Origin: Patescibacteria group bacterium
GTDB taxonomy: Bacteria; Patescibacteriota; Patescibacteriia; 2-02-FULL-49-11
Direction: 5' to 3'
Assembly (NCBI GenBank): GCA_041645165.1
Contig: JBAZQN010000005.1
Location: 19,832-83,831, forward strand
Length of the DNA stretch: 64,000 bases
Notes under the pieces: model-generated
Seen by the model: only the letters and a program-made list of their open reading frames with translations
Database searches by the model: none
Told to the model about the DNA's origin: nothing
Shown: positions 977 through 58,405 of the stretch, piece by piece
How positions within the stretch are numbered: position 1 is the stretch's first letter
How the letters are laid out: each line of letters begins with the position of its first letter
Made by a program: the position numbers and the translations under genes

Positions 977-1610
977 TTGGCGGTGAATCGGGGGGCCTTT
1001 TTTGCTTTCTTTTACGCGCAATATATAGTAAGAGGGAGAGGAGGGAGAGTGAAGCGTAGTTGAGTATCATAAACCATGACGTAGCCCATGCGATGCCGTT
1101 GAATTTCCATTCAGAGAAAGGCCAGAGGAAGGGAGTTGGGTAAAAGGCAAAAGAGTGGGTAGGAATGTCGGAAAGGATATGGAGAAACCAACCGCCTATT
1201 TCCCAAGGGATGCGTTTGTAGATTATCCAAATAAATGCCAGACATAGAAAAAATACGAAAAGACTGTGGCTGTAATTATAAAGGAGGGTGGCAAGTTGTA
1301 CGGTCCAGTGTGTTGCGGCAGGTGATGGTGCATGTGGCGCGGGCGGGCCTATGCGGGGAACTGAATCGCCGAACAAGGGACCGAGAATGAGCCACGCGAA
1401 AGGAATGCTGAACGCGAAGAGATCAGGAAAAAATCCCCAGAATGCGGCGAGCCAAGGGCTCACCGCCGCGGATTTACGCAGATCGTCTCGCGAGCCCATA
1501 ACGCGGATCAACGCGGAATTGTTTGATTGATGTTTTGTGAGATTGTAGGATTTGGCAGCAGCGGCTGCCCAAAGACCGTGGGCGAGGGTGTCCATAAGAT
1601 CATGGAACAC
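969..1610 (-). CDS. Hypothetical polytopic membrane protein
   Basis: 213-aa hydrophobic ORF with a GTG or ATG start inside or adjacent to the heptamer repeat array. Confidence 0.45.
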   Translation of the reverse strand: MFHDLMDTLAHGLWAAAAAKSYNLTKHQSNNSALIRVMGSRDDLRKSAAVSPWLAAFWGFFPDLFAFSIPFAWLILGPLFGDSVPRIGPPAPHAPSPAATHWTVQLATLLYNYSHSLFVFFLCLAFIWIIYKRIPWEIGGWFLHILSDIPTHSFAFYPTPFLWPFSEWKFNGIAWATSWFMILNYASLSLLSLLLYIARKRKQKRPPDSPPIP

Positions 1611-18166: not shown

Positions 18167-18265
18167 TTGGATATTTGGAAAAAATATCTGCGTAAATCCG
18201 CGTGAAGGCCAAGCGTGACGATCGGCGTTTATCCGCGGTTAGCGCCGACCGAGGGGAGGCCTAAC

Positions 18266-20555: not shown

Positions 20556-23033
20556 TCACAAAACACCCCAATGCGTCAAATGCTTGATGAGGATGAACGC
20601 CTTGCGGCTGCCGATTAGGGCGCTTAATTCTTCGCGGGAAACGCGCCGCAGGGCTTCCACCGATCCATAGGTGGTAAGGAGCAGTTGTCTGGTTTTGGGG
20701 CCGATGCTTGGGAGCGCGTCAAGGCGCGAGAGAGTGAGCTGTTTCGCATGGCGGCTGCGGTAGTGAGTGATAGCGAAACGGTGCGCTTCATCGCGCACGC
20801 GGTCAAGGAGGAGGAGCGCGGGGCTGGAGGGAGGTAGTTTAATGATCGTTCGGATTTCTCGTTGCAAAACACGCCAGTCGTTCGGACTGCCCGCAGAAAA
20901 AGACGCGGTTGACTTCCCCAGCGAGGAAGTCACCGCTCGGCTCTCGGCTTCGCTCGCCCCGCCCGGCGGGGCGCCATGCCCGCGAAGCCTCCGAGACGCT
21001 TTTTCTTTCGGGCGATCCTCACTGAAGGAGTTGAGTGTGGATGGTTTTGTAACGGTAATCCTCTCTCTCGTGAGTGTAAAAATTGTCTCACCCGCGCGCG
21101 GTTTTCTTCCTCGCCCCTTTGCAAGGGAGAGGAGAGGGATGTCGAGCGCATATTCGGCAAGCACCGCGTGCGTTGCATTGAGTTGGGGCACGCCGCCGTC
21201 AATGACAATAAGGTCGGGCAACGGCCATTGGTCAGTTTGTCGGTTTGTCGGTTTGTCAGTTGCCAGTTTGTGAGTGGATGAGTGTCTGCGTAAATCCGCA
21301 CTTGATCCGCGTTGACTTGCCTGCGCAGGCGGGTCTGCGACACTATGGGAGAGGCGGCGGCGGAGGACTTCGGCAAGCATCGCAGGATCATTGCTTCCTG
21401 TGACTGTTTTGATGACGAACCGCCGGTAGGCGGAAGGGTGGAGGACGCCCTGCGCGAGCACGGTCATGGCGCCGACCGCATACGATCCTTGGATATTGGA
21501 AATGTCATAGGCTTCAATGCGCGCGGGGGGGAGAGGAAGATGCAGAAGATTTTGGAGCGTCTCAAGGCTCTCGCGCGCCTGCGCAGACGCGCGCGCTTCG
21601 ATGCCGCCGCGGCGCATCAGTTCTTGGCGCGCATTTTCCTGACCCATCAAGATAAGCTTTTTCTTTTTGCCGCGTTTGGGGACTGCCACCATAATGCGCC
21701 CGGGGAGCGGCGAGAGAAGAGGAAGCGCGGTGTATACTTGCGGCGGAATGTCGCCAGTGCGGGCATAGTAGAGGCTGATAAACGCTTCGAGCGCTTCCTG
21801 TTCATTGGCGCCTTCTGCGTGGGCAAGGGGGAATAGGAGCCGTTCAGTGAGCGCGCCGTCACGGATTTTAAAAAGGTTTACCATGAAATGCGCGCCCTCG
21901 CGCGCCGCGCTCATGATGTCATAGGATTCCCTTTTTACGCTCACGATGGATTGGCGGGCGGTGATGGCACGCAGCGCGGCGATTTGGTCCCGCAGTTTTG
22001 CCGCAGATTCATATCGTCGCTCATCCGACTCCCTCTGCATCTGACTTTTGAGTTGCGCAATAAGCGTGCCGTAATGCCCGCGGAAGAAGGGGAGCATGCG
22101 GCGGATGATGCGCGTGTAGTGGGCAGGGCTCACGATGCCGACGCAGGCGCCGGGGCAGCGGCCGAGGTGGTAATTGAAACAAGGGCGAGAAGGGGGATGT
22201 GGTGAAGGCAGAGCACGATCGTTCGCGGCCACACGATTTTCTTGCTGCGGAACTCGATAGTCCGCTCGGGCTATTCTTGGTGAAACACGCCAGTCGTTCG
22301 GACTGCCCGCAGAAAAAGACGCGGTTGACTTCCCCAGCAAGGAAGTCACCGCTCGGCTCTCGGCTTCGCTCGCCCCGCCCGGCGGGGCGCCATGCCCGCG
22401 AAGCCTCCGAGACGCTTTTTCTTTCGGGCGATCCTCACTGAAGGAGTTGAGTGTGGAGGGTTTCATGAGAATATCCCTAGCTGAGGGAAAAGTATTTCGT
22501 CCGCCTATGCGAGAAGGGGAAGAGAAGGAAGAGGGTGGTTCGGTGCAGTACGGGAAGATGCGTTTGGCGAGGCGGAGCGCGGTGTAGGCGTGGCGCGCGG
22601 AAGTGTAGGGGCCGAAGAGAATGGAGTGCGAGCGCTTGGGGAGCAAGGGGCGGCGCACGGTAGAGACGTCAGCCCACGCGCGGTCGAAATCGAATTTTAT
22701 ATAGACGTAGGATTTATCGTCCGCGAGTATGATGTTATAGGGCGGATGGTGGCGTTTGATGAGTTCTGCTTCAAGAAGCAGCGCTTCGGTTTCATTGGAC
22801 ACGAGTATCGTTTCGAGAGAGGCGATGCTGTTCACCATGAGCTGCTTTTGGGGAGAAAGTTTAAGCGAGGGGGCGACGGTCTTTTTTGTCACGCGGAAAT
22901 AGGAGCGGACGCGGCTGAGTAACCGTTTCGCCTTGCCGATATAGAGAATATTCCCCTTCCCATCTCGGAAAAGATATACCCCCGGGCGAGGGGGTAGGGT
23001 GCGCAATTGGTCAAGGAGGCTCTTTGGTGGCAT
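20556..23033 (-). CDS. uvrC: Excinuclease ABC subunit C carrying in-frame repeat-element insertions
   Basis: GIY-YIG (GVYLFRDGKGNILYIGKAKRL), RPCFNYHLGRCPGACVG, the endonuclease domain and (HhH)2 are present. At 825 aa it exceeds the usual ~600 aa because of two identical 60-aa insertions plus a third repeat-derived insertion. Confidence 0.9.
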   Translation of the reverse strand: MPPKSLLDQLRTLPPRPGVYLFRDGKGNILYIGKAKRLLSRVRSYFRVTKKTVAPSLKLSPQKQLMVNSIASLETILVSNETEALLLEAELIKRHHPPYNIILADDKSYVYIKFDFDRAWADVSTVRRPLLPKRSHSILFGPYTSARHAYTALRLAKRIFPYCTEPPSSFSSPSRIGGRNTFPSARDILMKPSTLNSFSEDRPKEKASRRLRGHGAPPGGASEAESRAVTSLLGKSTASFSAGSPNDWRVSPRIARADYRVPQQENRVAANDRALPSPHPPSRPCFNYHLGRCPGACVGIVSPAHYTRIIRRMLPFFRGHYGTLIAQLKSQMQRESDERRYESAAKLRDQIAALRAITARQSIVSVKRESYDIMSAAREGAHFMVNLFKIRDGALTERLLFPLAHAEGANEQEALEAFISLYYARTGDIPPQVYTALPLLSPLPGRIMVAVPKRGKKKKLILMGQENARQELMRRGGIEARASAQARESLETLQNLLHLPLPPARIEAYDISNIQGSYAVGAMTVLAQGVLHPSAYRRFVIKTVTGSNDPAMLAEVLRRRLSHSVADPPAQASQRGSSADLRRHSSTHKLATDKPTNRQTDQWPLPDLIVIDGGVPQLNATHAVLAEYALDIPLLSLAKGRGRKPRAGETIFTLTRERITVTKPSTLNSFSEDRPKEKASRRLRGHGAPPGGASEAESRAVTSSLGKSTASFSAGSPNDWRVLQREIRTIIKLPPSSPALLLLDRVRDEAHRFAITHYRSRHAKQLTLSRLDALPSIGPKTRQLLLTTYGSVEALRRVSREELSALIGSRKAFILIKHLTHWGVL
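20866..21046. repeat. 181-bp palindrome-rich repeat, copy 1, in frame inside uvrC
   Basis: Identical apart from 2 SNPs to 22284-22464. It contains palindromes GACTTCC..GGAAGTC and CGCCCCGCC-CGG-CGGGGCG and encodes KPSTLNSFSEDRPKEKASRRLRGHGAPPGGASEAESRAVTSLLGKSTASFSAGSPNDWRV. Confidence 0.9.
22284..22464. repeat. 181-bp palindrome-rich repeat, copy 2, in frame inside uvrC
   Basis: Second copy 1.4 kb from the first, same reading frame, translated as the same 60-aa peptide inside the UvrC endonuclease domain. Confidence 0.9.
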
Positions 23034-23296
23034 ACTTACCTTATAACGCGTTTCAATCTTCCGCGTGCTTCTGCGTAATAATCAGCGTTCTTCCGCTTCT
23101 AATCTTCATAGAAGCAGACCCACCTGCCAGCGCCTTTGATTATGAGCACACTGTAGTATGATTATAGGTTTAGCGTCACGGTCGCATCTCATATCAGGGG
23201 ATAGGCCATGGCGGGCAGGTATACGCAGAAAGTTAGGCAGATTTACGCAGATATTGAATTACGAATCATAGTGTAACCATTTAACTTTAACGCCTT

Positions 23297-27137: not shown

Positions 27138-27671
27138 AAAGCGACGTTTTTCATTTTTTCTGCGTAAGTCAGCGGTGACGTCTCCGCCAGAGGCGGATCC
27201 GCCTATGGCGTGAAGCGTAAGTCAGCGGTTAGTGCTAGAGGATGACTTGTCAGTTTTTTTAGGCGGGTTTACACTTACCACCAGATGGCCCGTCCTCTCC
27301 ACAATTTAGGTAATAGGTTATCGCAGATCATTTCCCCTGCGCCGGCTTTTGAGTCTTTCCTCGTCCGCCGGTTTTTGTTGCTTTAAGCATTCTCCTGCTT
27401 TTCTGGTTTTTCTCAGCTCACTCAACAGATTTTTGAGAAAGTCGTCCAGAGCATGCATTATCCATCAAAGATAGAGAAAAGTATTACCATTCCGATCAAT
27501 GCGGCCATCAAACTCCTAGAGCGGGGGCAGGTGAGCTTAGCTGGCACCGTTCTTAAGACGCTCGTTGCATACCTTAACGTCCTCGCCGATAAGCATCTTA
27601 TTCCTCAACAAGATGCCATTAATTTTATCCAAACCATCGAGCAGATAAGGAGCTCGTTGTAATTCCAAATT

Positions 27672-30920: not shown

Positions 30921-32099
30921 ATGCGTATGCGTAAATTTTTAAATGTCACCATTTTCCTTATAAGCCTCTGTGCCGTCGGCGTATCTGCGCAACAGGCTTC
31001 CAACCGTGCGCGCACGGAGCTCATGAACGCGTATCGCCAATATAAGGAGGTCAATAATCTCGTGTTGTCTGTGCCCACGGTCGTGGAAGTGTCATTTGCT
31101 GATCAGTACCTTGAACGCGATAATTTTGCGGTGCTTGACCAATTCGCCGGCTCATATGAGCCCTCCTACGTCAGGCAGGAGACGATTGTTGCCGAAAATT
31201 CCTTCAGCATTGCCACGGATAAAATCATTGGAGGAGCATCGCGCATGATTGACGGAGATACGCGGACCTATGCGGAATTCGCACTACCCGAGAATGCACA
31301 GGGAAGCGCGCGGATAATGCTCAAATCCTCGCAGCCGGTGGTTTCATCGGGTCTTACTCTTTTTCTTGACGATCATGTGGCTTTGCCGACTTCAGTAGGA
31401 ATTCGTGCGGTCGTGAATGGCAGCGAGCGTATTGTGGTGGCGGAGCGCAGCATCAATCAGCCTACCATTGGGTTCCCGCGTACGGAGGCGCGGGACTGGA
31501 TCGTCACATTTACCTTTGCGCAGCCTCTGCGTATCACGGAACTGCGTCTCATACCGGAAAATGCCGCTTCCACGAAAATATATAACCTGCGTTTTCTCGC
31601 GCAGCCTCAGCGTACATATCGTATCTACTTCGATCCCGACAGAAACGTGAATGTTCCCGTCGGCGAGACCGGAAATCTCGCGCTAAATAAGGACGTGCTT
31701 GTACTCCCCCTGTTGAGCGCGAATGCGAACCCTCTTTATCGTGCGGCAGACGTTGATGCCGATGGTGTTATTGATACGCAGGACAATTGCGTTGAGATAA
31801 GCAATCGGGACCAGCGCGACATCAACCATAACGGAAGGGGAGATGTATGTGATGACTACGACCGTGATGGGCTGATCAACAGCAAAGATAATTGTCCGGA
31901 AAACGCCAACCGCAGCCAAGCAGATACTGACGGTGATGGGAAAGGAGATGCGTGCGATGCCGAAGAGAGCAGGATTACGGAACGAAATCCATGGCTGCCA
32001 TGGGCAGGGATTGTATTTGCGGCGCTTGTGGTGGCGGTCCTTCTATTCATAACGGTGCGCATGCCGACAGACGACAAGAAACCTCTTCAGAGAAAGTAG
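30921..32099 (+). CDS. Secreted/anchored protein with thrombospondin type-3 Ca-binding repeats (possibly DUF3999-like partner)
   Basis: Signal peptide; DVDADGVIDTQDNCVEISNRDQRDINHNGRGDVCDDYDRDGLINSKDNCPENANRSQADTDGDGKGDACD matches TSP3 repeats; C-terminal TM anchor. Confidence 0.6.
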   Translation: MRMRKFLNVTIFLISLCAVGVSAQQASNRARTELMNAYRQYKEVNNLVLSVPTVVEVSFADQYLERDNFAVLDQFAGSYEPSYVRQETIVAENSFSIATDKIIGGASRMIDGDTRTYAEFALPENAQGSARIMLKSSQPVVSSGLTLFLDDHVALPTSVGIRAVVNGSERIVVAERSINQPTIGFPRTEARDWIVTFTFAQPLRITELRLIPENAASTKIYNLRFLAQPQRTYRIYFDPDRNVNVPVGETGNLALNKDVLVLPLLSANANPLYRAADVDADGVIDTQDNCVEISNRDQRDINHNGRGDVCDDYDRDGLINSKDNCPENANRSQADTDGDGKGDACDAEESRITERNPWLPWAGIVFAALVVAVLLFITVRMPTDDKKPLQRK

Positions 32100-32205
32100 T
32101 ACAGGAATTTAACAGGTGGTGCGATTCTCGAAACGGCTATTTATCTCATGAATAGCCTTTTTGGTTTGGCGTGGCGCGTGCGGGAGCCCCATGTCCATGT
32201 GGCAA

Positions 32206-32240
32206 AAATGCTGTAAATTTGCCACCTTTTTGCTTGATAC
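32206..32240 (+). terminator. Rho-independent terminator (GUGGCAAAU..AUUUGCCAC + CUUUUU) within the 85-bp duplicated module
   Basis: Hairpin plus T-run read directly. A second copy lies at about 32955-32990. Confidence 0.55.
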
Positions 32241-32356
32241 CAGCTGCCTTTTGTGGGATCATGAAGGCAAATGAAAAATATAACATGAGCTAAAATGAGA
32301 ATCTCCCATAGATCCACCAGTTGGCGGAGCAAGTATAATCTTCTATAGTTTATGAT

Positions 32357-32851
32357 ATGGTGTTAAAGGAAAATAATTTTGCCTACATTGACGCGGCAAA
32401 CCTTCACAAAGGAGTTGCGAGCTTGGGCTGGCAGCTTGATTACGCAAAATTCAGGAGATGGCTATTCGAGAAATATGGCGTGCGCGCCGCGTACTTGTTT
32501 ATCGGTTTAATAGCAAAATATAAAGAGCTTTATAAATCTCTGCAAGAGGCGGGGTTTACGCTGGTGTTCAAAGAAGTGGTATATGACGGAGAAGGCAAGC
32601 CCAAAGGGAATTGCGACGCTGATTTAGTATTGCAGGCGACGCGTGACGCCTTTGAAAATAAATTTGATACGGCAGTTATTGTCGCAAGCGATGGCGATTA
32701 TGCGGGACTGGTTAAATTCTTGCAGGAGAAACACAAGCTGTCAGTCATACTGTCTCCCAGCAATGAGAAAAAATGCTCGATTCTTCTTAAACGGACTGGA
32801 GCAAAAATTGCCTATATTAACGATCAGCGCTCCCATTTAGAATTGGCTTAA
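32357..32851 (+). CDS. NYN-domain (LabA-like) protein
   Basis: FAYIDAANLH..GNCDADLVLQA..VASDGDY. It is bracketed by about 85-bp direct repeats at 32193-32278 and 32948-33037. Confidence 0.7.
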   Translation: MVLKENNFAYIDAANLHKGVASLGWQLDYAKFRRWLFEKYGVRAAYLFIGLIAKYKELYKSLQEAGFTLVFKEVVYDGEGKPKGNCDADLVLQATRDAFENKFDTAVIVASDGDYAGLVKFLQEKHKLSVILSPSNEKKCSILLKRTGAKIAYINDQRSHLELA

Positions 32852-33056
32852 AAAGAAAAAGCCCCCGATAGGGACGGCACCCCATAAGGGTCTTTTTCGT
32901 GGTGATGGTTGCAGTATAGCAGGCGTTTACTGAAAGTCAATAGTCCATAAGAGCCCTCTCGCCCATGTGGCCCATTTGCTGCAAATGTGCCACCTTTTTA
33001 CTTGTTACTAGTTGGTTTTTATGGGATCATGAAGGTATGAAAATTAAGGCTTAATT

Positions 33057-35561
33057 ATGCAAAAGGAAGCTAATGCACGATTAAAAATAAACGCCTTACT
33101 CCAAGAGTCCGGCTGGAGATTTTTTGATGATAAAAAAGGCAAAGCCAATATTGTCTTGGAAAATAACGCCAAAATCACAAAACAAGCCATAGATGAATTT
33201 GGCAACGATTTTGAAAAAACTAACAAAGGTTTTATTGATTTTTTACTGCTCGATGAAAAGGGTTTTCCGTTTGTCGTTTTAGAAGCAAAATCGGAAGACA
33301 AAGACCCTCTCGACGGCAAAGAACAGGCGCGCCGTTATGCCCAATCACAAAACGCCCGCTTTATTATTCTTTCAAACGGCAACCTTCATTATTTATGGGA
33401 TGTAGAGCGCGGCAACCCGACAGTTATCATCACTTTCCCGACTTATGAATCCTTGAAGCATTTTGAATCTTTCAAGCCAAGTTTTGCCGCTCTTTCAGAG
33501 GAAAAAGTTGAAAGCGATTATATTGTCCAAACTCAAAATCCAAATTATCAAAAAGACCCGCGCTGGATTGATGAAACTCAAAGGCCGGATTTTATCAAAG
33601 ATCAGGATTTAAAATTTTTACGGCCTTATCAGCTTTCCGCAATTTACTCCTTGCAGAGTTCGGCGAAAAAAGGCAATGATCGCTATCTTTTTGAAATGGC
33701 AACCGGCACAGGCAAAACTCTTATTGCGGGCGGAATAATCAAGCTGTTTTTGAAAAGCGGAAACGCCAAAAGAATTTTGTTTTTAGTTGATCGCTTGGAA
33801 TTGGAAGATCAAGCGTGGAAAAATTTTGTTCGTTTTCTCAAAAGCGATTTTACCTGCGTAATTTACAAAGAAAACAAAGACGACTGGAGAAAAGCGGAAA
33901 TTATCGTTTCCACAGTTCAAAGTTTGTCATTCAACAATAAATACAAAGAGCTTTTTTCACCGACAGATTTTGATTTGTTAATATCTGATGAAGCGCACCG
34001 TTCAATCGGCGGAAATAGCCGGGCAGTTTTTGAGTATTTTGTCGGGTATAAATTAGGGCTTACCGCCACGCCGAAAGATTATCTCAAAAATATTGACCCG
34101 CAAAAAGTCAGCGAGAAAGACCCGCGCGCTTGGGAACGCCGTCAGCTTTTGGATACTTACACGACTTTTGGCTGTCCTTCCGGCGAGCCGACTTTCCGAT
34201 ACAGCTTGCTTGACGGCGTAAAAGACGGCTATCTTGTTAATCCGATTGTCGCCGACGCGAGGACAGAAATCACCACCGAACTTTTATCAGAAAAAGGTTA
34301 TTCCTTAATGGTAGAAAACGAGGAAGGAATTGAGGAAGAACAAACCTTTTTCCAAAAAGATTTTGAGCGGAAATTTTTCTCCGATAAAACAAATCAGATT
34401 TTTTGCAAAACATTTTTAGAAAATGCGATCAAAGACCCGATTAGCGGGGAAATTGGAAAGAGTATTATTTTCTGCGTGAGTCAAAATCACGCTTCAAAAA
34501 TAACGCAAACTTTAAATCAATTTGCTACGGCTCTTTGGCCCGACAAATATAATTCCGACTTTGCCGTGCAGGTTACTTCCAATATTCCCGACTCTCAACA
34601 ATTTCCTATCAATTACGCAAACAATTATCTAAACGGACAAACAAAATGGCTGGCGGGCTATAAATCAAGCAAGACAAGAGTTTGCGTAACCGTCGGCATG
34701 ATGACAACTGGCTACGATTGCCAAGATGTGATGAATCTTTGCCTTATGCGACCAATTTTTTCTCCGACTGATTTTATTCAAATCAAAGGACGCGGAACGA
34801 GAAAATATACTTTCAGCTACAAAGACGCAGACAATGAGCTGATAAAAATAGAAAAAGACACTTTCAAACTTTTTGATTTCTTCGCTAACTGCGAATATTT
34901 TGAGGAAAAATACAATTACGATCAAGTTTTGAAGCTCCCGATTAAAACCGGAACGGGAACAGGCGGCGGCGAGGGCGTAGATATTGATGAAGTAAATATT
35001 TTTAATCCCGACCCGCTCAAAACTTTTTCAGAAATTGCAGTCGGCCTTGCCGGTATGAAAGTTGACTGGAAGTTTTTTGATAAATTTGAATCGGTTGTAA
35101 AAAATGATCCGGTTGTTAAACAAAAATACGAGCAGGGCGATGTCAAAGGAGCGGAAGAATATGTTAAAACCGAAATTTTTGAAAAACCGGAAGATTATTT
35201 CAATTTGGATAAATTGCGAAAATCCGTCAAAGCAGATCGTCGCATTACGCTCAAAGAATTTATTGAAAAAATCTTTGGTGGTATAAACAAATTCAAATCA
35301 AAAGACGAATTGCTTGAAGATGAATTTGAAAAGTTTGTTTCTATCCACAAACCCGAAAATGATAATCTTTTACAAATTAAAAATTTTCTAAAATGTTATG
35401 TTGCAGATCAGGAATTTAGAACAATTATTGACAATAATCAAATCCAACGGTTATACACCTACCCAAGTTTTTCCGCTAATGAACTTAATGAATTGGGTAA
35501 GTATAAAAAGATTGTACCGGAATATGTCAAAGATTATGTTTCCTTAAATACTTTTATGTAA
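33057..35561 (+). CDS. hsdR: Type I restriction enzyme R subunit
   Basis: N-terminal PD-(D/E)xK nuclease (DFLLLDEKGFPFVVLEAKSED) and SF2 helicase motifs (ATGTGKT, DEAH: LLISDEAHRS). Confidence 0.85.
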   Translation: MQKEANARLKINALLQESGWRFFDDKKGKANIVLENNAKITKQAIDEFGNDFEKTNKGFIDFLLLDEKGFPFVVLEAKSEDKDPLDGKEQARRYAQSQNARFIILSNGNLHYLWDVERGNPTVIITFPTYESLKHFESFKPSFAALSEEKVESDYIVQTQNPNYQKDPRWIDETQRPDFIKDQDLKFLRPYQLSAIYSLQSSAKKGNDRYLFEMATGTGKTLIAGGIIKLFLKSGNAKRILFLVDRLELEDQAWKNFVRFLKSDFTCVIYKENKDDWRKAEIIVSTVQSLSFNNKYKELFSPTDFDLLISDEAHRSIGGNSRAVFEYFVGYKLGLTATPKDYLKNIDPQKVSEKDPRAWERRQLLDTYTTFGCPSGEPTFRYSLLDGVKDGYLVNPIVADARTEITTELLSEKGYSLMVENEEGIEEEQTFFQKDFERKFFSDKTNQIFCKTFLENAIKDPISGEIGKSIIFCVSQNHASKITQTLNQFATALWPDKYNSDFAVQVTSNIPDSQQFPINYANNYLNGQTKWLAGYKSSKTRVCVTVGMMTTGYDCQDVMNLCLMRPIFSPTDFIQIKGRGTRKYTFSYKDADNELIKIEKDTFKLFDFFANCEYFEEKYNYDQVLKLPIKTGTGTGGGEGVDIDEVNIFNPDPLKTFSEIAVGLAGMKVDWKFFDKFESVVKNDPVVKQKYEQGDVKGAEEYVKTEIFEKPEDYFNLDKLRKSVKADRRITLKEFIEKIFGGINKFKSKDELLEDEFEKFVSIHKPENDNLLQIKNFLKCYVADQEFRTIIDNNQIQRLYTYPSFSANELNELGKYKKIVPEYVKDYVSLNTFM

Positions 35562-35563
35562 TT

Positions 35564-36592
35564 ATGAAAAAATTACAACCTCAATCACAAATAATTATCT
35601 ATAAAGCAGAAACAGGCGAGACTAAAATCGATGTGCGTTTTGACGGTGAAACAGTGTGGTTAACGCAAAAACTTTTAGCTGAACTTTTTGGCGTTACTGT
35701 TCCTACTATCAATGAACATATTAAAAATGTTTACAAAGAAGGTGAATTAAAGGAAAGCTCAACTATTCGGAAATTCCTAATAGTTCAAAAAGAAGGCATT
35801 CGTGAAGTAGAAAGAGAGATTGATTTTTTTAATCTCGACATGATTATCTCTGTCGGTTACCGTATTAAAAGCTCTATCGCCACAGCTTTTCGTCAATGGG
35901 CAACTTTGCGACTACGCGAATATATTGTCAAGGGCTTTGTAATAGATGATGAACGATTAAAGAATCCCGATCTGCCATTTGATTATTTTGAAGAATTAAC
36001 TCGTCGTATCTCAGAAATACGCGCCTCAGAAAAGAGATTTTATAGAAAAATTACCGACATCTATGCCACCAGTGTTGACTATGACCCGACAGATGAGAAG
36101 AGTACCCTCTTTTTTAAAACAGTTCAAAACAAAGTTCATTATGCGATTACGGGAAGCACTGCGGCAGAGATAATCGCGAGCAGGGTGGATAGTAAAAAAA
36201 CAAATGTAGGCCTCACAAACTTCAGGGGCAGTAAGCCAACAAAAGAAGAAGTTTTGTTTGCCAAAAATTATTTGAGCGAGCAGGAACTTCTCGTTTTAAA
36301 TAATCTTGTCGAGCAATATCTCGTATTTGCCGAAGGACAGGCGATGCAGAGAGTGCCAATGTATATGAAGGACTGGATAGATAAACTCCACGGATTTTTA
36401 CAGATTAACAATAAAGATATTTTGAAAGATGCGGGCAAGGTCTCGCATGAGTTGGCAAAAGAGTTAGCTGAAAAAGAATATGATAAATATTACAAAAAAA
36501 GTTTAAAAGCGCCAAGCAAGGCGGACAGAGATTTTGAGGCATTCGCGAATAAAGCGATGAAACTTGTTAGCAAGGGTAAAAAGAAAAAATAA
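35564..36592 (+). CDS. rhuM: RhuM-family virulence/DNA-binding protein (typical Type I RM locus passenger)
   Basis: The N-terminal IIYKAETGETKIDVRFDGETVWLTQKLLAELFGVTVPTINEHIKNVYKEGEL pattern is characteristic of RhuM. Confidence 0.8.
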   Translation: MKKLQPQSQIIIYKAETGETKIDVRFDGETVWLTQKLLAELFGVTVPTINEHIKNVYKEGELKESSTIRKFLIVQKEGIREVEREIDFFNLDMIISVGYRIKSSIATAFRQWATLRLREYIVKGFVIDDERLKNPDLPFDYFEELTRRISEIRASEKRFYRKITDIYATSVDYDPTDEKSTLFFKTVQNKVHYAITGSTAAEIIASRVDSKKTNVGLTNFRGSKPTKEEVLFAKNYLSEQELLVLNNLVEQYLVFAEGQAMQRVPMYMKDWIDKLHGFLQINNKDILKDAGKVSHELAKELAEKEYDKYYKKSLKAPSKADRDFEAFANKAMKLVSKGKKKK

Positions 36593-36594
36593 TT

Positions 36595-39108
36595 ATGAAT
36601 TATCAAGAAATAAAACAAAAAATAAAAAATTGCCGCAACATTCTTGTTGGAATTGTTCCTAGTCCTGAAGCGCAAGTGCAACAAATCACTATTGCTTTGA
36701 TGTATAAATTTATGGATGATATGGATAAAGAAGCGCAGGAAAAACACGACGCCCCGCCAATGTTTTTTGCCGGCGAATTTGCTAAATATTCCTGGACTAA
36801 ACTTTTGTCGCCACAAGTAGGAAATCAAGAGAGATTAAATCTTTACGCGGAAGCGATTGAAAAAATGAATGAAAATAAAGACATTCCACAACTTTTTAGA
36901 GATATTTTCAAAGGAGCCTTTTTGCCATATCGCAGTCCCGAATCCCTTAGTTTATTTTTAAAAGAAATAAACGGTTTTACTTATGATAACAGTGAAAATT
37001 TAGGCAATGCCTTTGAACATTTGCTTTCAATTATGGGCAGTCAAGGCGACGCGGGGATGTTCAGAACCCCAAGACACATTATTGATTTTATTGTTGACGC
37101 GGTTGATCCGCAAAAAAATGAAAATATTTGCGATCCAGCTTGCGGATCTGCGGGTTTTCTTATTTCCGCCTACAAACACATAATAAACGCAAACACAAAA
37201 GAGAAAAAAGGCGATCTTTTATCGCCGGAAGAAAAGAAAAAACTTATTAAAAATTTTTCAGGTTATGATGTATCGCCGGATATGGTTCGTTTATCAAAAG
37301 TGAACATGTATTTTCATGGATTTCTTGACCCAACAATTTATGAATATGACACGCTTGGGCAAGAGGAAAAATGGGACGAAAGTTTTGATGTTATGCTTGC
37401 AAATCCGCCGTTTATGTCGCCAAAAGGCGGAATACGACCGCATAAAAGATTTTCCGTGCAAGCCAATCGCTCCGAAGTGCTTTTTGTGGATTATATTTTA
37501 GAGCATTTGCGTCCCAAAGGCCGCGCCGGCATTATCGTTCCGGAAGGAATTATTTTTCAATCCGCGACCGCTTATAAAGCGTTAAGAAAATTAATGATTG
37601 AAGACGGACTTTTGGCAGTTGTTTCGTTACCGGCTGGCGTTTTCAATCCATATGCCGGAGTAAAAACAAGCATTTTGTTTTTTGATAATGAAATTGCCAA
37701 GAAAACGAAAAATATTTTATTTCTGAAAATTCAAAATGACGGCTATGACCTTGGCGCGCAAAGACGAGAAATTGACAAAAACGATTTACCTTTGGCTTTG
37801 GAAATTATTAAGAAATACAAAGAGGTTCTTTCCTCCTGTCATTCCGTACTTGATACGGAATCTATAAAGAAAGAGCTGGATTCCCGTTTTCACGGGAATG
37901 ACAAATGGGGAGAAATCGCTCATCTTGTCGCCAAAGAAAAAATCGCCGAAACCGGCGACTACAATCTTTCGGGCGATAGATATAAAGAAAATAATAATTT
38001 TATAAACAGAAAATGGCCAATGGTTAGTTTAGATGAAGTTATTGATTTGAATTTTGGCGTAAGAATAACTAAAAAGAATAGCGAGGGGATAGAATACCCT
38101 GTTTATGGTGGCGGTGGTGAAAGTTTTAGAACCGATACATTTAATAGAGAGGACGAACTTATTATTTCTCGTTTTGCGATGGCAGAATGGTGTGTCCGCT
38201 TTGTAAAAGGAAAGTTTTATTTATTAGATTCAGGATTTACTTTTTCCGTGAAGCCAGAAAAGAAAAATGAAGTATTGAAAGATTATATTGATAGATATTT
38301 TCTTTCAACACAACAAAGGATTTATTCCTGCGCGCGAGGTCATGCCCAGAAAAATCTTGATGTAAAACAATTCAAGTCGCTTAAAATCCCGTTTCCTCCG
38401 ATTGAAGTCCAGAAAAAAATCGTTGAGCAGATTGAAGTTAAGCAAAACGCCATAGATCACGCCAAAGCAATCATCCAAAGTCTAGAGAGAGAGAGACGCT
38501 ATTTTGGTCAATCACTTAGAAAATTAAAAGGTGTTGAGTTGGTGAAATTGGAAAATATTTGTGATGATTTTAGAAATGGAGTTAATTTTTCCAAAGAGCA
38601 AGTAGGAAGAGGCACAAAACTTGTGAATATTAAAGACTTATTTAACGACGGATATGTTGATGTTGAAAATTTGGAACAAGTTGAATTAAAGGATAAAGAG
38701 GTGATAAAAAACACTCTCAAAGACGACGATTTATTATTTGTTCGTTCATCAGTCAAATACGAAGGTTGCGGCTACCCATCTCTTATTAGGGTAGGAAAGG
38801 AAAATATTGTTTTTTGTGGTTTCATTATCAAATGTTCGCCAAATAAAAAGAAGGTTTATCCGAAATATTTGCTGCATCTTTTAAGGTCTGAGGAATATCG
38901 GAATCAAGTTATCATTTTATCTAACCGAGCAAATATAACAAACATATCACAGGATAGAATAAAATCAGTAAAAATTATTTTGCCGTCAATTGAAACGCAA
39001 AAGCAGTTAGCAGATGAGGTAGAAAAAGAGCAAGAATTTATAAATATAAATAAGCAGTTGATTAAAATATACGAGCAAAAAATCGCTGATGTTTTAAGTG
39101 AAATATAG
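36595..39108 (+). CDS. Type I RM methyltransferase-specificity fusion (HsdM N-terminal ~470 aa + two-TRD HsdS C-terminal ~360 aa)
   Basis: N6-adenine MTase motifs (DPACGSAGFL, NPPF) followed by two target-recognition domains with HsdS-type conserved spacers (FPPIEVQKKIVEQIE.., LPSIETQKQLADEVEKE..). Confidence 0.8.
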   Translation: MNYQEIKQKIKNCRNILVGIVPSPEAQVQQITIALMYKFMDDMDKEAQEKHDAPPMFFAGEFAKYSWTKLLSPQVGNQERLNLYAEAIEKMNENKDIPQLFRDIFKGAFLPYRSPESLSLFLKEINGFTYDNSENLGNAFEHLLSIMGSQGDAGMFRTPRHIIDFIVDAVDPQKNENICDPACGSAGFLISAYKHIINANTKEKKGDLLSPEEKKKLIKNFSGYDVSPDMVRLSKVNMYFHGFLDPTIYEYDTLGQEEKWDESFDVMLANPPFMSPKGGIRPHKRFSVQANRSEVLFVDYILEHLRPKGRAGIIVPEGIIFQSATAYKALRKLMIEDGLLAVVSLPAGVFNPYAGVKTSILFFDNEIAKKTKNILFLKIQNDGYDLGAQRREIDKNDLPLALEIIKKYKEVLSSCHSVLDTESIKKELDSRFHGNDKWGEIAHLVAKEKIAETGDYNLSGDRYKENNNFINRKWPMVSLDEVIDLNFGVRITKKNSEGIEYPVYGGGGESFRTDTFNREDELIISRFAMAEWCVRFVKGKFYLLDSGFTFSVKPEKKNEVLKDYIDRYFLSTQQRIYSCARGHAQKNLDVKQFKSLKIPFPPIEVQKKIVEQIEVKQNAIDHAKAIIQSLERERRYFGQSLRKLKGVELVKLENICDDFRNGVNFSKEQVGRGTKLVNIKDLFNDGYVDVENLEQVELKDKEVIKNTLKDDDLLFVRSSVKYEGCGYPSLIRVGKENIVFCGFIIKCSPNKKKVYPKYLLHLLRSEEYRNQVIILSNRANITNISQDRIKSVKIILPSIETQKQLADEVEKEQEFININKQLIKIYEQKIADVLSEI

Positions 39109-39110
39109 TT

Positions 39111-41456
39111 ATGTTTGAAAAAGTAATCAAGCTCAAAAAATTCGGAATATTTCGCGACTTTTCATGGTGTAGTAATACTCCAGATCTTGCTCGATTCAAT
39201 TTGATTTATGGTTGGAATAAAAGTGGCAAGACGACTTTTTCGAGAATATTTTCTACTTGCGAAAAAAAGACGACAGAATTTAACCAATACCCGAAAGACA
39301 AAGAAGGAAATTTGGGCGAATTTGAGATAAAGTTAAATAACGGCACTACAATTAAGCATTTCGATTGCCAAAACGGGACAAAACAAATACGAGTATTCAA
39401 TGAAGATTTTATTGACGAGAATGTGTCATTTGATCCATCCAATCCTAGCAATCCGATTGTTTATGTAAGCGAAGTAGATATAGAGAGTAGTAAAAAGTTG
39501 AAGGAGCTAAGAGGGAAAGCTACACTATTATCTCAAAATTTTGAAGCCTATTTGAAAGCCCGCCAAAAAAGCGAAAAGGCAGAAGATGATTTTCGAAAAT
39601 CCACGGCACGCACTATCAAGGACATCGTCGGCAATCTGAAAGTTAATGATAAATACCGCGACTATGACAAGAGTGGCGTAAAGATAGCAATTGAAAATAT
39701 AGGGATTGATAATTTCACCAAATTTTCTGATGAAGATTTTGAAAAAAAGAAAAAACTTATCGGTGGCGACCCACCCAATAATCAATCACTTTTTTCAAAA
39801 TATGATCTTGGATTTTCATTCAATGGAAAAAATCTATCAAATTTTTCAGACATCCACGATGAAATCGCTACATTACTTAAACGCAAAGTGGTCGCGGAAA
39901 CTATTGACCGTCTAAAAAACGATCCCGAATTAAACAAATGGGCGCAACACGGATTCGAGCTACATAAAAACAAAGATGAAAAGAAAAAGTGTTTGTTTTG
40001 CCAAAATGAATTTTCCGAGGGTTTTTTAGATTTGTTATCAAAACATTTCAGCAACGATTACGAAAAATTACAGGACGACATAACATCGTTGATTCAGGGA
40101 TTAGTTGATCTAAAAAAGGAAAAAATTATAGAGAAAATTTCGGAGCTTTATGCAGATTTACAGAGTGGCTATAAAGATATAGCCAAAAGGCTAAATGGCA
40201 TTGTGGAAGAATTGAATGGCTGGATAGATGAGGTAACAAAAAAACTGAATAAGAAGCACGACAACCCGCTTTCAATGGCGGAAGCGCCAAAATCACCAAA
40301 AGATTTTAAGGAATCCTATGATAAAGCGACTGATGAGTTAAATTCTGTTATTGCTAGCCATAATTTGAAGGTCAGAAATCACGAACAAGAAGTAAAAACT
40401 GCGAAAGAGGAATTAGAGAACCACCTCATTGCCGTTGCTTTAAAAGAACTAGATTATCCAAAAATAAAAGCGGATTATGATTCAGACATTGAAACTGAGA
40501 AAAAAGCAAAAAATGCGGTGGAAGAAAATAATAAACAAATATTAATATTAGAAAAAGAAACATCCAATATCGGAAAAGCTGTTCAAAAAATAAACAAACA
40601 TCTGGAAGAATTTTTTGGAAGAAAGGAAATACATCTTGAATTAGACGACTTCAAAAAGGGCTATGTTATAAAACGCGATGATGATACGGCGCACAATTTG
40701 AGTAAGGGCGAAAAAAATGCCATCGCGTTTTCCTATTTTGTTGTTAAAACCCAAGAAAAAGGATTCAAAACTGATGAAGGAATAATTGTAATTGATGACC
40801 CTATTTCCAGCTTTGATTCCAATTTTATCTATCATTGCTTTTCATTGATAAAAAGTCACTTCAAAGAATCCGAGCAGTTGATCGTCTCGACTCATAATTT
40901 TGAATTTTTTAATTTGGTGAAAGATTGGTTTGAGCAAAAAAACCGGAAAGTAGAGAGCGATAATAAGAAAATTGCGAACGAGTTAGATAAAAAGCCCACC
41001 CCTTGCGAATTTTTTATGATTGAAAATACCGTTGAGAATGAAAAACGGTGCGCCTCAATCGTACCATTGGAAGAAACTTTGAGGAAATTCAAGTCAGAGT
41101 ACCATTTTCTTTTTTCTAGATTGAATCAGTTTATCGCTGCAGGTTCGCCGAACTACGCCGACTTTTACACTATCGGAAATATAGCAAGAAGATTTTTAGA
41201 AATTTACATAAACTTTAAAATTCCAACCACCGGCGACTTAAAAAGCAGGGTTGATCAACTTGATACACAGACAGTAAGTGACACGGAAAAAGATAAGGTG
41301 TATAGATTAATTCAGGAATTTTCGCATGGGCTTGATCCTGTGAGCACGATTGAGCACAAGGACAAAAGCGAGATACAAGGTGCAATTAAAGTATTGCTGA
41401 AAATGGTTGAGGAGTCGGACAATAAGCATTTCGAATCATTGAAAAGTACGTTATAA
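39111..41456 (+). CDS. RloC/PrrC-like coiled-coil ABC ATPase (candidate anticodon nuclease / abortive-infection effector)
   Basis: Walker A GWNKSGKTT, about 350 aa of coiled coil with a CLFCQNEF CxxC zinc-hook-like motif, Walker B IVIDDPISSFD, H-loop STHN, and a C-terminal region with ARRFLE (R-x3-E) and an ...EFSHGLD motif reminiscent of the PrrC nuclease triad. It sits immediately downstream of the Type I RM genes. Confidence 0.5.
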   Translation: MFEKVIKLKKFGIFRDFSWCSNTPDLARFNLIYGWNKSGKTTFSRIFSTCEKKTTEFNQYPKDKEGNLGEFEIKLNNGTTIKHFDCQNGTKQIRVFNEDFIDENVSFDPSNPSNPIVYVSEVDIESSKKLKELRGKATLLSQNFEAYLKARQKSEKAEDDFRKSTARTIKDIVGNLKVNDKYRDYDKSGVKIAIENIGIDNFTKFSDEDFEKKKKLIGGDPPNNQSLFSKYDLGFSFNGKNLSNFSDIHDEIATLLKRKVVAETIDRLKNDPELNKWAQHGFELHKNKDEKKKCLFCQNEFSEGFLDLLSKHFSNDYEKLQDDITSLIQGLVDLKKEKIIEKISELYADLQSGYKDIAKRLNGIVEELNGWIDEVTKKLNKKHDNPLSMAEAPKSPKDFKESYDKATDELNSVIASHNLKVRNHEQEVKTAKEELENHLIAVALKELDYPKIKADYDSDIETEKKAKNAVEENNKQILILEKETSNIGKAVQKINKHLEEFFGRKEIHLELDDFKKGYVIKRDDDTAHNLSKGEKNAIAFSYFVVKTQEKGFKTDEGIIVIDDPISSFDSNFIYHCFSLIKSHFKESEQLIVSTHNFEFFNLVKDWFEQKNRKVESDNKKIANELDKKPTPCEFFMIENTVENEKRCASIVPLEETLRKFKSEYHFLFSRLNQFIAAGSPNYADFYTIGNIARRFLEIYINFKIPTTGDLKSRVDQLDTQTVSDTEKDKVYRLIQEFSHGLDPVSTIEHKDKSEIQGAIKVLLKMVEESDNKHFESLKSTL

Positions 41457-41571
41457 TAAATTTGATGTCCCGCCGTCCGCTCGCCAAAAATTCTGTTTCG
41501 CTCCGCAGGAGCGATGATGTGGAAAGCGTTTCCGCCGTCTTGGTATCAAGACATCAAAGCAAAATAATCTT

Positions 41572-42093
41572 ATGCCAGATGATAATTTAACTACTGAATC
41601 ACCAGCGGCGGAGGTGCCGGTAGAGATGCCGGTGGTGCCAAACGAACCGATTCCGCCAGTCAAAATTCCACCTGTGACACCAAGCGAACCGGTGCCGGCA
41701 TCAGCGCCGCCGACAACGGAAGTGCCGGTTGAGGTTAGCCCCAGTGCCTCGGCAGTAGCTCCAACCGTTGTAACCTCGCCCACGCCGCCGCCCGCGCAAG
41801 CCGAACCAGCGCCTGCCATCGGGTTAGCGCCGGCCGTGAATTTAAAGTCATTGTTGGCGAAGGCCATGGAGACCATCAGATTCCGCAGAAATGCGAAGCT
41901 GGAAAAAATCATGAAATTTGTGGGCGAAAAAGGCTCTGTCACTAATGACCAGGCGCAAATGCTGCTCCGCATTTCCGATGCCACCGCAAGTCGCTATCTT
42001 TTGACGCTCACCCAACAGGGGCGTCTGCGGAGGACCGGCAAGACATCGGGCAGCCGCTATGAGTCGACAGTCGGCTCAAATGGAGGGAATTGA
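41572..42093 (+). CDS. Hypothetical Pro-rich protein with C-terminal winged-helix-like domain
   Basis: N-terminal PxxP-rich low complexity and a C-terminal KIMKFVGEKGSVTNDQAQMLLRISDATASRYLLTLTQQGRL. Confidence 0.4.
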   Translation: MPDDNLTTESPAAEVPVEMPVVPNEPIPPVKIPPVTPSEPVPASAPPTTEVPVEVSPSASAVAPTVVTSPTPPPAQAEPAPAIGLAPAVNLKSLLAKAMETIRFRRNAKLEKIMKFVGEKGSVTNDQAQMLLRISDATASRYLLTLTQQGRLRRTGKTSGSRYESTVGSNGGN

Positions 42094-42304
42094 GCCGATG
42101 GCGATGCAAGAATGAGCGATAGCCGTTATAAAAATTTGGTTTTATTCGGAGAATTGTACTCACATTATAGACATCACATTGAGAAATGGTACTCATCAGC
42201 AGTGTCATGGTGAGCTTGTCGAATCCATACACTGCGGACATCCTTCGACAGGCTCAGGATGACAGTACTACGTCATGATGTGATATCTATAAGCGCAAAA
42301 AATT

Positions 42305-42655
42305 ATGGGCATGGTTGAAAATTTTCGTACGCACGAAGCGTTTATCAAAAGAGAATTAAAACGCGCGCATAGCGACGCGGGGTGGCGGGATTTGTCGGAT
42401 TATCACCACACGCAAATTCAAAATTTCCAGCATGAGCGGCTGGTTCATTTGCTCGTGACCCTGACGTATGCCTTGGTCAATCTGATTGCCCTCGCGATCA
42501 CGCTCGCATTTCCCAGCATTGGCATAGTAATTTTGGACATTATCCTGCTCGTGATGCTCGCGTTTTATGTCTGGCATTATTTTGCTCTGGAAAACGGCAT
42601 TGCGCGGCTGTACCAATTGGACCAAAAAATTATCAAGAAATACCTGGATAGATAG
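42305..42655 (+). CDS. Small hypothetical membrane protein
   Basis: Two TM helices and no identifiable family. Confidence 0.35.
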   Translation: MGMVENFRTHEAFIKRELKRAHSDAGWRDLSDYHHTQIQNFQHERLVHLLVTLTYALVNLIALAITLAFPSIGIVILDIILLVMLAFYVWHYFALENGIARLYQLDQKIIKKYLDR

Positions 42656-42669
42656 CCATAAATCACTTT

Positions 42670-43209: not shown

Positions 43210-43283
43210 GATTTATTCTCTCATTGCCGCCAGAGGCGGACACAGCGTGCGCTTTGCCGCATGAGCAGAAAATTTATATTACT

Positions 43284-43492: not shown

Positions 43493-43502
43493 TCAAGGGT
43501 AT

Positions 43503-56246: not shown

Positions 56247-56271
56247 AACGGATTTACGCGGATTATACTCA

Positions 56272-57590: not shown

Positions 57591-57661
57591 GTAGCGTGGT
57601 AGCTTGTCTACCACTCACGATGTCTTATTGTCGGAGGCAAGCTCCGACGCTACTATTCTTG
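57591..57661 (-). repeat. Structured hairpin repeat (GTAGCGTGG...ACGCTAC), copy 1, leuD-leuB intergenic
   Basis: gtagcgtggtagcttgtctaccac...gcaagctccgacgctac is homologous to 61158-61245. It has nested inverted repeats with a long-range closing stem. Confidence 0.55.
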
Positions 57662-58405
57662 TGACTGTCGTTGCTCGAACGCAGCAATCTCCGGCTCAAA
57701 TTTAAGAATATATCCAATCTCATCTACCCCGTCGCGGAGACATGCTTTCACGAACGGATCAATCTCAAAGCGGTAGTCCTTGCCTTTCCAACTCACGGTT
57801 TGCCGTTCTAGGTCAAGGTGCGCTTCTTCTTGCGGACTACCTGCGGCATCTTTATGCATTTGGTCCACGGCCACTTCAGGCAATGAAACGGGAAGAAGGC
57901 CGTTTTTATAGCAGTTATTTTTAAAAATATCGCCGAAGGTAATCGCAATCACGGCCTTGAACCCGTATTCAGAAAGCGCCCAGACCGCATGTTCGCGGGA
58001 AGAGCCGCTGCCAAAATCCCTATGCGCGAGCAATATCCTTGCATTTTTATCCGCCTCCGCAGGAAAACCGCGGGCGTCAGCCCGCGGATGAATGCGGGAC
58101 TGCGGATCCGCCGAAGCCTTGCGCGAAGGCGGCAGGACTGCTACGGCGGATTCCGCCTGATCTCCCTTGAGAGAGATACCGTGGGCGTGAGCCCGCGGAG
58201 TTTCATACAGGGGATTATTGAGAGGAAATTCCGGCCCTGCCTCGCCCTGCGGATTAAACCGCAAATCACGGAATAGATTTTCCCCATAGCCTTCCTTTCC
58301 GGTTGCGATCAAAAACCGCGCGGGTATGATCTGGTCAGTGTCCACGTCGTCCATCAGCAGAGGAACGAGGAGCGAAGAAAAATTTTTGAATGGAGCCTGT
58401 GACAT
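57653..58405 (-). CDS. leuD: 3-isopropylmalate dehydratase small subunit carrying a ~49-aa palindrome-derived in-frame insertion
   Basis: LVPLLMDDVDTDQIIP..and ..ILLAHRDFGSGSSREHAVWAL match LeuD. Relative to E. coli LeuD, the segment RAHAHGISLKGDQAESAVAVLPPSRKASADPQSRIHPRADARGFPAEADK is inserted, encoded by GC-palindromic DNA (ccgcgggcgtcagcccgcgg / ccgtgggcgtgagcccgcgg / ccgccgaagc..gcgaaggcgg). Confidence 0.85.
   Translation of the reverse strand: MSQAPFKNFSSLLVPLLMDDVDTDQIIPARFLIATGKEGYGENLFRDLRFNPQGEAGPEFPLNNPLYETPRAHAHGISLKGDQAESAVAVLPPSRKASADPQSRIHPRADARGFPAEADKNARILLAHRDFGSGSSREHAVWALSEYGFKAVIAITFGDIFKNNCYKNGLLPVSLPEVAVDQMHKDAAGSPQEEAHLDLERQTVSWKGKDYRFEIDPFVKACLRDGVDEIGYILKFEPEIAAFEQRQSQE

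Follow-up and report, generated by a model that had tools for sequence, protein, structure and literature searches.

The window analysed here is a stretch of 64 kb from a Patescibacteria genome (assembly GCA_041645165.1, contig JBAZQN010000005.1, positions 19,832 to 83,831). It carries a uvrC gene whose reading frame holds two near-identical copies of a 181-bp repeat, which an earlier inspection of the letters alone (the original prediction) had likened to Rickettsia palindromic elements (RPEs). The gene and its inserts, with amino-acid (aa) positions, are given below; CM stands for covariance model, AF2 for AlphaFold 2 and ORF for open reading frame.

20556..23033, minus strand: uvrC coding sequence (CDS) with three repeat-derived in-frame inserts (ORF listing, Pfam, homologue alignment, AF2)
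22283..22463, minus strand: element copy at site 1, aa 191-250 (pairwise comparison, blastn, CM)
20867..21047, minus strand: element copy at site 2, aa 663-722 (pairwise comparison, blastn, CM)
21225..21332, minus strand: third in-frame insert, aa 568-603, ...PPAQASQRGSSADLRRHSSTHKLATDKPTNRQTDQ, before LIVIDGG (alignment, motif scan)

The ORF listing gives uvrC as one intact frame of 825 aa. As proposed, this exceeds the usual length of about 600 aa, since 115 of the 120 best homologues measure 573-643 aa. Pfam recognises the GIY-YIG, UVR and HhH domains and both UvrC RNase H-like domains. In the AF2 model the conserved domains have a pLDDT (predicted local distance difference test) of at least 90; values under 50 are confined to aa 171-276, 576-599 and 661-718, the three inserts. 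Alignment shows the inserts to be absent from ordinary UvrCs. In the model they map to predicted disordered loops of low pLDDT; the original prediction had proposed surface loops. The gene keeps its reading frame and looks functional.

The two copies differ at 2 of 181 positions (99% identity) and are read in the same frame, as first described, with coordinates that agree to within 1 base. The encoded peptides, which had been called identical, share 59 of 60 residues, TSSLGK in one facing TSLLGK in the other; the second base difference is synonymous. Both copies also sit where they had been placed, one between the GIY-YIG region and the RPCxNYH motif and the other inside the endonuclease domain. 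Site 1 separates the first cysteine of the Cys-rich motif, in FPYC (aa 160-163), from the second, in RPCFNYH (aa 283-289), and there the sense strand of the element is the uvrC coding strand. We take the FPYC and RPCF cysteines to correspond to Fe-S ligands in E. coli UvrC. Site 2, in the RNase H-like endonuclease domain, is preceded by LSLAKGRG (aa 635-642) and followed by IKLPPSS (aa 731-737), with LAKGRG..GETIF on one side and IKLP..RDEAHRF on the other, and the PDB match to 2nrt, a solved C-terminal endonuclease domain, is split around it. Matches to the CM cover 22279-22453 at site 1 (142 bits) and 20863-21037 at site 2 (146 bits), and the core motif GTCTCGGAGGCTTCGCGGGCATGG stands at 22390-22413 and 20974-20997, respectively. 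Identity between the copies ends abruptly at the element ends. No target duplication is detectable at either copy, and the only inverted termini of window-type copies are AAAC..CAC / GTG..GTTT at the hairpin foot. Searches by blastn, nhmmer and unfiltered CM revealed no further copy in the window, the next-best CM match scoring 10.7 bits.

The proposed secondary-structure check reveals a strong fold: compared with shuffles, the 181-bp unit reaches z = -3.2 as RNA (-86 kcal/mol) and z = -5.0 as DNA. To define the family, a 24-position pattern, GTCTCGGAGGNNNNGCGGGCATGG, was taken from one conserved block and searched in genome and metagenome collections. It matched 66 loci in species-representative genomes and 82 metagenome loci, with about 1 match expected by chance; the matches at three or four loci (L036, L050, L062, L067; L numbers denote loci) are weak and partial. 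An exact 35-mer scan of the genome collection gave no match; the shorter degenerate pattern succeeded. In the 1.07 Mb of fetched loci, nhmmer recovered 171 copies. The hosts include many classes of Patescibacteria, WOR-3/Stahlbacteria, Omnitrophota, Saganbacteria, Actinomycetota and metagenome-assembled genomes (MAGs) of Delta- and Gammaproteobacteria, and one Stahlbacteria MAG has at least 9 loci with the motif. A scan of viral contigs found no element copy.

Copies from relatives show conserved blocks with a covarying hairpin between them. The unit is predicted to be a long imperfect hairpin tipped by a three-way junction, with a near-invariant core and covarying helices, and not the simple GC palindrome first described. 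The consensus of 71 diverse copies comprises a variable outer stem, helices P1 to P4 and near-invariant junction strands. P1 pairs GAAAAGC with G.UCUUUUC. P2 pairs GGCC[GA]GC with GC[GA]GGCC, its tandem G.A being replaced by Watson-Crick pairs in several lineages, the window among them. P3 is a variable hairpin, frequently with a C-GAA-G loop. P4 pairs GCGGCAAUUUC with GAAAUUG.ACCGC and bears the conserved loop CUCGCUGGG, in place of which some copies carry a UUCG-type hairpin. Over 30 pairs in the 4 helices of the 71 copies, 92.5% of positions are paired, versus 72% in a shuffled control and 33-47% in slid controls. Changes on both sides of a pair occur in 445 cells, a value reached by none of 500 shuffles. 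G.U pairs (92) outnumber A.C mismatches (34) and tandem G.A pairs recur; the folding strand is therefore the one identical to the uvrC mRNA.

Neither the window nor 12 loci with canonical copies matched any family of Rfam 15 at gathering score, and raising E to 10 yielded chance-level matches only. [quoted passage not shown]

Two further features of the fold were seen. CGAG faces CGAG, a tandem G.A flanked by C-G and G-C, three to four times in one element (for example L038 5304-5478), at alignment columns 54-55/108-109, in P3 hairpins and at the P1 base. The C-GAA-G loop is an unusually stable DNA mini-hairpin. Because the CGAG tandems recur and P3 often ends in C-GAA-G, the folded form could be single-stranded DNA rather than RNA. 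Further insertions of 50-150 nt, nested hairpins among them, also cluster in P3 (L006, L009, L055, L071, L106, L129, L144, L152), and no ORFs were seen in these insertions.

We classified 90 non-redundant full-length copies by their ORF context. Between genes lie 69 of them, and 15-16 lie inside long ORFs, all in frame and stop-free. No copy of the 90 breaks a gene; four frame-breaking candidates were rejected since they are located between different tandem genes. Hosts confirmed by Pfam in other Patescibacteria are, besides UvrC, the NAD-dependent DNA ligase LigA (just before the CELKIDG motif, in two genomes), FolD (ahead of the Rossmann motif, on three contigs), GT2 and PMT_2 glycosyltransferases. 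These cases, in unrelated essential genes, bear out the proposal that the inserts are repeat-derived and spread into ORFs without breaking them. Together they amount to roughly 8 independent in-ORF insertion events. Every in-gene copy is in frame, and insertions or deletions within such copies change the length by whole codons (+15 nt in L003, for instance), which argues for translation of the inserts and against splicing. When a profile of the insert peptide was run against 1.84 billion cluster representatives, 12 proteins had E <= 0.001; they comprise the UvrC cluster and short ORFs (71-190 aa), the latter probably called across intergenic copies. On these counts, residence inside ORFs appears recurrent but rare. 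The likeness to RPEs stands as regards behaviour and does not extend to a rampant presence in ORFs.

Orientation follows rules of its own. Read in sense or in antisense, the element is about equally stop-free. Among intergenic copies outside WOR-3, the right-hand gene runs antisense 23 times and sense 7 times, and the stop codon of an adjacent gene often falls within the outer stem. In 51 of 69 copies (p = 9e-5) the strand that folds coincides with the C-rich strand of the flanking DNA, a result confounded with gene orientation; in this test of a replication-strand idea the in-ORF copies split 6 to 4. Counts of U-/A-tracts at the hairpin foot are similar on both sides (15 vs 11 of 66) and do not clearly support terminator function as the explanation of the bias. 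The orientation rules suggest a strand-specific insertion step or an effect at the RNA level. The sole convincing antisense piece in a gene is a fragment of about 40 nt that is read as part of tRNA-guanine transglycosylase, in tgt (L089 / L141; aa 89-146 of the L141 ORF 3756-4982), corresponding to the first ~40 model positions and adjoining the TDSGGFQ motif.

We aligned the window UvrC with P0002 (826 aa), P0003 (777 aa), P0005 (766 aa), P0004 (662 aa) and ordinary UvrCs (P numbers denote proteins). Related peptide inserts occupy site 1 in P0002, P0003 and P0005 and site 2 in P0002, and the aligned ordinary UvrCs have no insert at either site. At the DNA level the element is 77% identical in L003, 77% in L004 and 85% at site 2 of L001, where it is rearranged. 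Site 1 is filled in all three loci, whose UvrCs are only 50-81% identical over aligned columns; the 81% is that of L001, a Uhrbacteria-like relative, to the window UvrC. Site 1 of L001 holds an internally deleted copy, accepted only once both termini (AAAACCCTCCGCAG ... GCGTGTTTTT) and an exact core 14-mer had been located. Site 2 of L001 (3280-3690) is a composite in which an outer stem and termini of window type enclose a second element with a different outer stem as well as about 100 nt of unrelated sequence, and the 826-aa ORF remains open through this insert of ~330 nt. The composite sequence is also present in L011, MGER01000078. A putative site-2 remnant in L004 was not counted, its DNA-level similarity being no higher than that of shuffles. 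P0004, the sister of P0005, has no element copy in its UvrC, and comparison of this empty site with the filled one of P0005 did not resolve the exact insertion boundaries. Inserts at the same UvrC sites were recovered in independent assemblies: two ENA samples, NCBI GCA_040757655.1 and a RIFCSP Uhrbacteria MAG.

Because both sites are occupied in L001, we infer that an ancestor shared by the window genome and L001 already had both of them filled, before the two split. The original prediction had taken the near-identity of the two copies as a sign of recent mobility. Since site 1 is occupied in L001, L003 and L004 and site 2 in L001, the 99% identity is best explained by homogenisation through gene conversion and not by a recent jump. 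The inserts appear old yet lineage-specific, and not ancestral UvrC sequence: orthologues with the same segments, which had been named as the sign of an ancestral origin, occur inside this clade and not in unrelated bacteria.

Codons threaded onto the protein alignment allowed the element to be compared with its host gene. Third-position identity between the window and L003 is 0.87 in the element versus 0.57 in the rest of uvrC, and between the window and L004 it is 0.73 versus 0.43. Amino-acid identity shows no such excess (element 0.65 for L003 and 0.49 for L004; host 0.68 and 0.52), and conservation of the element is about equal at all three codon positions. Third positions are thus conserved above the host while the peptide is not, which argues that selection is not on the peptide. 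The nucleotide sequence seems to be either constrained or refreshed from other copies, and does not behave as a decaying relic.

The same core is found in at least three chassis: the hairpin by itself and two MITEs whose inverted repeats are unrelated to each other. In WOR-3-type genomes it is part of a unit of ~300 bp with the inverted repeat TTGCCTACCCCCCA at both ends, and about 20 copies are flanked by 10-12-bp direct duplications of unique flank; by these signatures the unit is a classical MITE. The left duplication almost always follows GTCAAG (L021 4210-4530 and ~20 similar loci, such as L014, L018, L020, L056, L058, L080 and L082), indicating either a target-site preference or insertion into another repeat. 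In Actinomycetota (two loci) the core is in a ~290-bp unit whose inverted repeat, AACTTTTGCGTT, is another one. Patescibacteria have the hairpin alone, and similarity between members of one subfamily ends at the stem foot. A copy of the window subfamily also lies between genes, 3' of folD, in the P0003 genome. Elements measure 150-330 bp and have no conserved ORF, their 5' half being read in different frames by different hosts. No recurrent transposase or reverse transcriptase was found within 3 kb of copies. A search for long matching inverted-repeat pairs, as an autonomous partner would have, returned none from the 1.07 Mb of loci; both negatives are weak.

Together these results lead us to favour, with a probability of about 0.7 for the reading as a whole, a translated mobile hairpin element that is non-autonomous, tolerated in frame and homogenised within uvrC. 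The 181-bp segments would be copies of a small non-coding element with a conserved three-way junction, maintained at the level of the nucleic acid and not of the peptide. The bare hairpin would most likely be mobilised in trans by an enzyme that recognises a folded single strand, as for REPINs (doublets of repetitive extragenic palindromic, or REP, sequences forming hairpins) or elements derived from the insertion sequences (IS) IS200/IS605. Copies in genes would survive only where in frame and stop-free and, like RPEs, would on translation form a surface loop, hydrophilic and disordered, to which the protein is tolerant. The two uvrC copies would have been homogenised by gene conversion, at sites filled in an ancestor shared with the Uhrbacteria-like relative.

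Several points weigh against this reading. All of the ~8 independent in-ORF insertions are in sense orientation, although antisense frames are equally open, and intergenic copies are mostly antisense to neighbouring genes; a passive model of selfish DNA filtered by stop codons predicts neither. The core is conserved across phyla far beyond what is usual for MITE interiors. Hairpin-only copies of the CPR type show no target duplications and no terminal inverted repeats beyond the hairpin, and since no mobilising enzyme was found either, their mobility is deduced from their distribution. Both window copies reside in one gene, where intragenic duplication followed by conversion would also fit. 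The higher third-position identity could stem from exchange between genomes rather than from constraint. Finally, translation of the inserts is something we infer from sequence.

An alternative is that the element might primarily be a structured RNA with a function, be it as ribozyme, cis-regulator or protein-binding module, whose conserved junction serves the element or its host and which is translated as a side effect; its presence in uvrC, ligA and folD would then be selected at the RNA level, for instance for mRNA stability or processing or for linked expression of repair genes. The junction strands and the loop CUCGCUGGG, near-invariant across phyla, the four covarying helices and the strand-specific signature of the fold, with more G.U than A.C and tandem G.A, all speak for such an RNA, as do the exclusively sense orientation in ORFs despite open antisense frames, the conservation of third positions above the host rate and the recurrence of one core in at least three chassis. 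We consider it unlikely all the same, given that no Rfam match appears even at E = 10 and that multiple copies and the target duplications of the WOR-3 type are the behaviour of a transposable element. Most intergenic copies run antisense to the adjacent genes, so that transcription together with these would not yield the strand that folds. Furthermore, the P0004 UvrC does without the element, site 1 of L001 has decayed by internal deletion, and the conserved loop is swapped for a UUCG-type hairpin in some copies. A related proposal, which we hold to be speculative and rather improbable, is that the three-way-junction core is a new functional nucleic-acid module, either RNA or single-stranded DNA recognised by a conserved enzyme or itself catalytic, that defines a cross-phylum lineage of elements. 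If true, it would account for the three or more chassis, for the sequence kept inside coding regions and for entry into genes in one orientation.

That the two uvrC copies are recent independent transpositions, and for this reason 99% identical, would agree with the 2 differences in 181 positions, with the abrupt end of identity at the element ends and with the nested or replaced copies of L001, which show new insertions into old copies. It is nevertheless quite unlikely, as L001 is filled at both positions and L003 and L004 at site 1; fresh insertions at such old sites would need loss followed by site-specific re-insertion, and conversion between 181-bp tracts 1.4 kb apart is simpler. CPR genomes carry insertions in rRNA genes, and the base-paired termini of the element would bring its junctions together, so that removal of the segments as introns, as inteins or by translational bypass, leaving a mature UvrC of normal length, comes to mind. 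This is very improbable: splicing would not require about eight independent events to be in frame and stop-free with indels in multiples of 3, Rfam finds no group I/II intron or ribozyme, Pfam finds no Hint/intein domain, and at 60 aa the insert is much too short to be an intein. The location of both window copies in one gene and their low-complexity peptide could likewise point to lineage-specific protein linkers that arose by intragenic duplication under protein-level selection, or to an assembly artefact of a repeat-rich MAG. We give this next to no credence, because the DNA element is intergenic at most loci and present in other genes, its conservation is independent of codon position, and the inserts recur at the same sites in independent assemblies.

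The third uvrC insert and an insert in leuD derive from other repeats of the same genome. Their features and those of related sequences are as follows.

18187..18236, plus strand: REP-like doublet, intergenic, adjoining tRNA-Leu; TCTGCGTAAATCCGC at 18187-18201 and TCGGCGTTTATCCGC at 18222-18236
23215..23251, minus strand: REP-like doublet, intergenic, between the uvrC start and a CBS-domain gene
1468..1517, minus strand: REP-like doublet with the exact 15-mer at 1468-1482
27159-27173, 51065-51139 and 56248-56262: further single or double REP-like copies
57653..58405, minus strand: leuD CDS, 250 aa (relatives 180-234 aa)
58049..58204, minus strand: leuD insert, 156 nt / 52 aa, lineage-specific

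As had been noticed, the third insert, placed before LIVIDGG, is repeat-derived, contains a threefold microsatellite (GACAAACC x3 at 21231-21257) and has a related intergenic motif at 18187. It holds an in-frame REP-like doublet with the exact 15-mer TCTGCGTAAATCCGC at 21285-21299; two further exact copies of this 15-mer lie at 1468 and 18187, and a copy one mismatch away is at 23237. Allowing up to 3 mismatches, the window has 12 occurrences versus 2.7 expected, and none of 100 shuffles reaches 12. REP-like copies are usually doublets 22-60 nt apart, intergenic or just past stop codons, and the hexamer GCGGAT/ATCCGC occurs 84 times in the window versus about 31 expected. The third insert is common to P0002-P0005 in diverged form and is therefore old.

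In leuD, a different hairpin insert is present as predicted, with a length of 156 nt in place of the ~147 bp given. None of the 119 listed relatives has it, not even the nearest one, whose aligned columns are 85% identical. Its fold (z = -4.5) is a string of four or five small GCGGAT/ATCCGC-rich hairpins, with a copy of the 20-nt hairpin CCGYGGGCGTSAGCCCGCGG at either end, and the uvrC element is of another family. The leuD insert and the third uvrC insert each go back to an event of its own, involving short REP-like hairpin repeats, and at least two kinds of hairpin repeat have therefore entered ORFs in this genome.

Elsewhere in the window, a low-GC island at 32000-44000 (GC 0.34-0.44 vs ~0.52 elsewhere) comprises the ORFs 33057-35561, 35564-36592, 36595-39108 and 39111-41456. 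A RhuM-family protein and an AAA_13 protein are encoded there alongside a type I restriction-modification set (an HsdR-like ResIII protein and fused N6_Mtase + Methylase_S); the whole probably represents a defence island gained by horizontal transfer. Along almost the entire window the plus strand shows positive GC skew, whatever the gene direction. If this marks the leading strand, transcription of uvrC and its neighbours (13.8-23 kb) runs counter to replication.

Hitherto an oddity of Rickettsia, selfish DNA within protein-coding genes would with these findings extend to Patescibacteria, another lineage of small genomes. The inserts are in core enzymes of DNA metabolism and come within a few residues of catalytic motifs, namely the cysteines of the UvrC Cys-rich motif and the adenylation lysine of LigA KxDG, just before which the element lies. 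A widespread structured repeat family with strong covariation has been missing from Rfam, and it could help annotators of MAGs to explain over-long proteins and spurious short ORFs. Its cross-phylum core, several chassis and strict orientation rule together offer a handle on the machinery that moves hairpin-type repeats.

The element shares traits with several known systems. Like REPINs with their REP-associated tyrosine transposases (RAYTs) and the IS200/IS605-derived palindrome-associated transposable elements (PATEs), the window-type (CPR) form consists of a hairpin and nothing else and shows no target duplication. The element also folds in a strand-specific manner and is biased in position and orientation relative to genes, being mostly intergenic and just past stop codons. 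REPINs are species-specific, whereas this element crosses phyla. No RAYT or TnpA genes were seen near copies, and GTAG-type motifs are not evident, though no search was aimed at them. In form, the 15-mer doublets of the window (TCTGCGTAAATCCGC) resemble classical REPs more than the 181-bp element does. In-frame fusions are also known from MITEs (ERIC, BOX, Correia, Nezha and others; PMC10969869), which are likewise small, non-coding, structured, multi-copy and occasionally inserted in genes, and the WOR-3-type members resemble them in their terminal inverted repeats and 10-bp target duplications. In contrast, window-type (CPR) copies have neither duplication nor inverted repeat beyond the hairpin, their most conserved part is internal, and a parent IS with the same ends was not found. 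Inteins and self-splicing introns also insert in conserved regions of DNA-metabolism genes, as here in UvrC and LigA, and leave gene function intact. The present inserts have no Hint domain, match no intron or ribozyme model and are too small for an intein; unlike inteins and introns, given that they are constrained to be in frame and stop-free, they would stay in the protein.

Closest in behaviour are the RPEs, which lie both between genes and in frame inside unrelated genes (PMC10969869, summarising Ogata et al. 2000). As they are portrayed in that summary, RPEs and the present element are both short (~100-180 bp) palindromic non-coding repeats found in intergenic regions and in frame in housekeeping genes, both add a peptide compatible with the host fold, and neither is presented with a known transposase. 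According to the same summary, nearly half of the RPEs of R. conorii are in ORFs (PMC10969869), whereas in-ORF copies are rare here (15-16 of 90, with 12 profile matches). The hosts are Patescibacteria and other uncultured phyla instead of Rickettsia, and we saw no basis for sequence relatedness. The present element is also set apart by its three-way-junction tip, cross-phylum core and covarying helices, by constraint on its nucleotides and not its peptide, and by the homogenisation of its in-ORF copies. By analogy, then, the uvrC element is RPE-like in behaviour, and we do not file it as an RPE.

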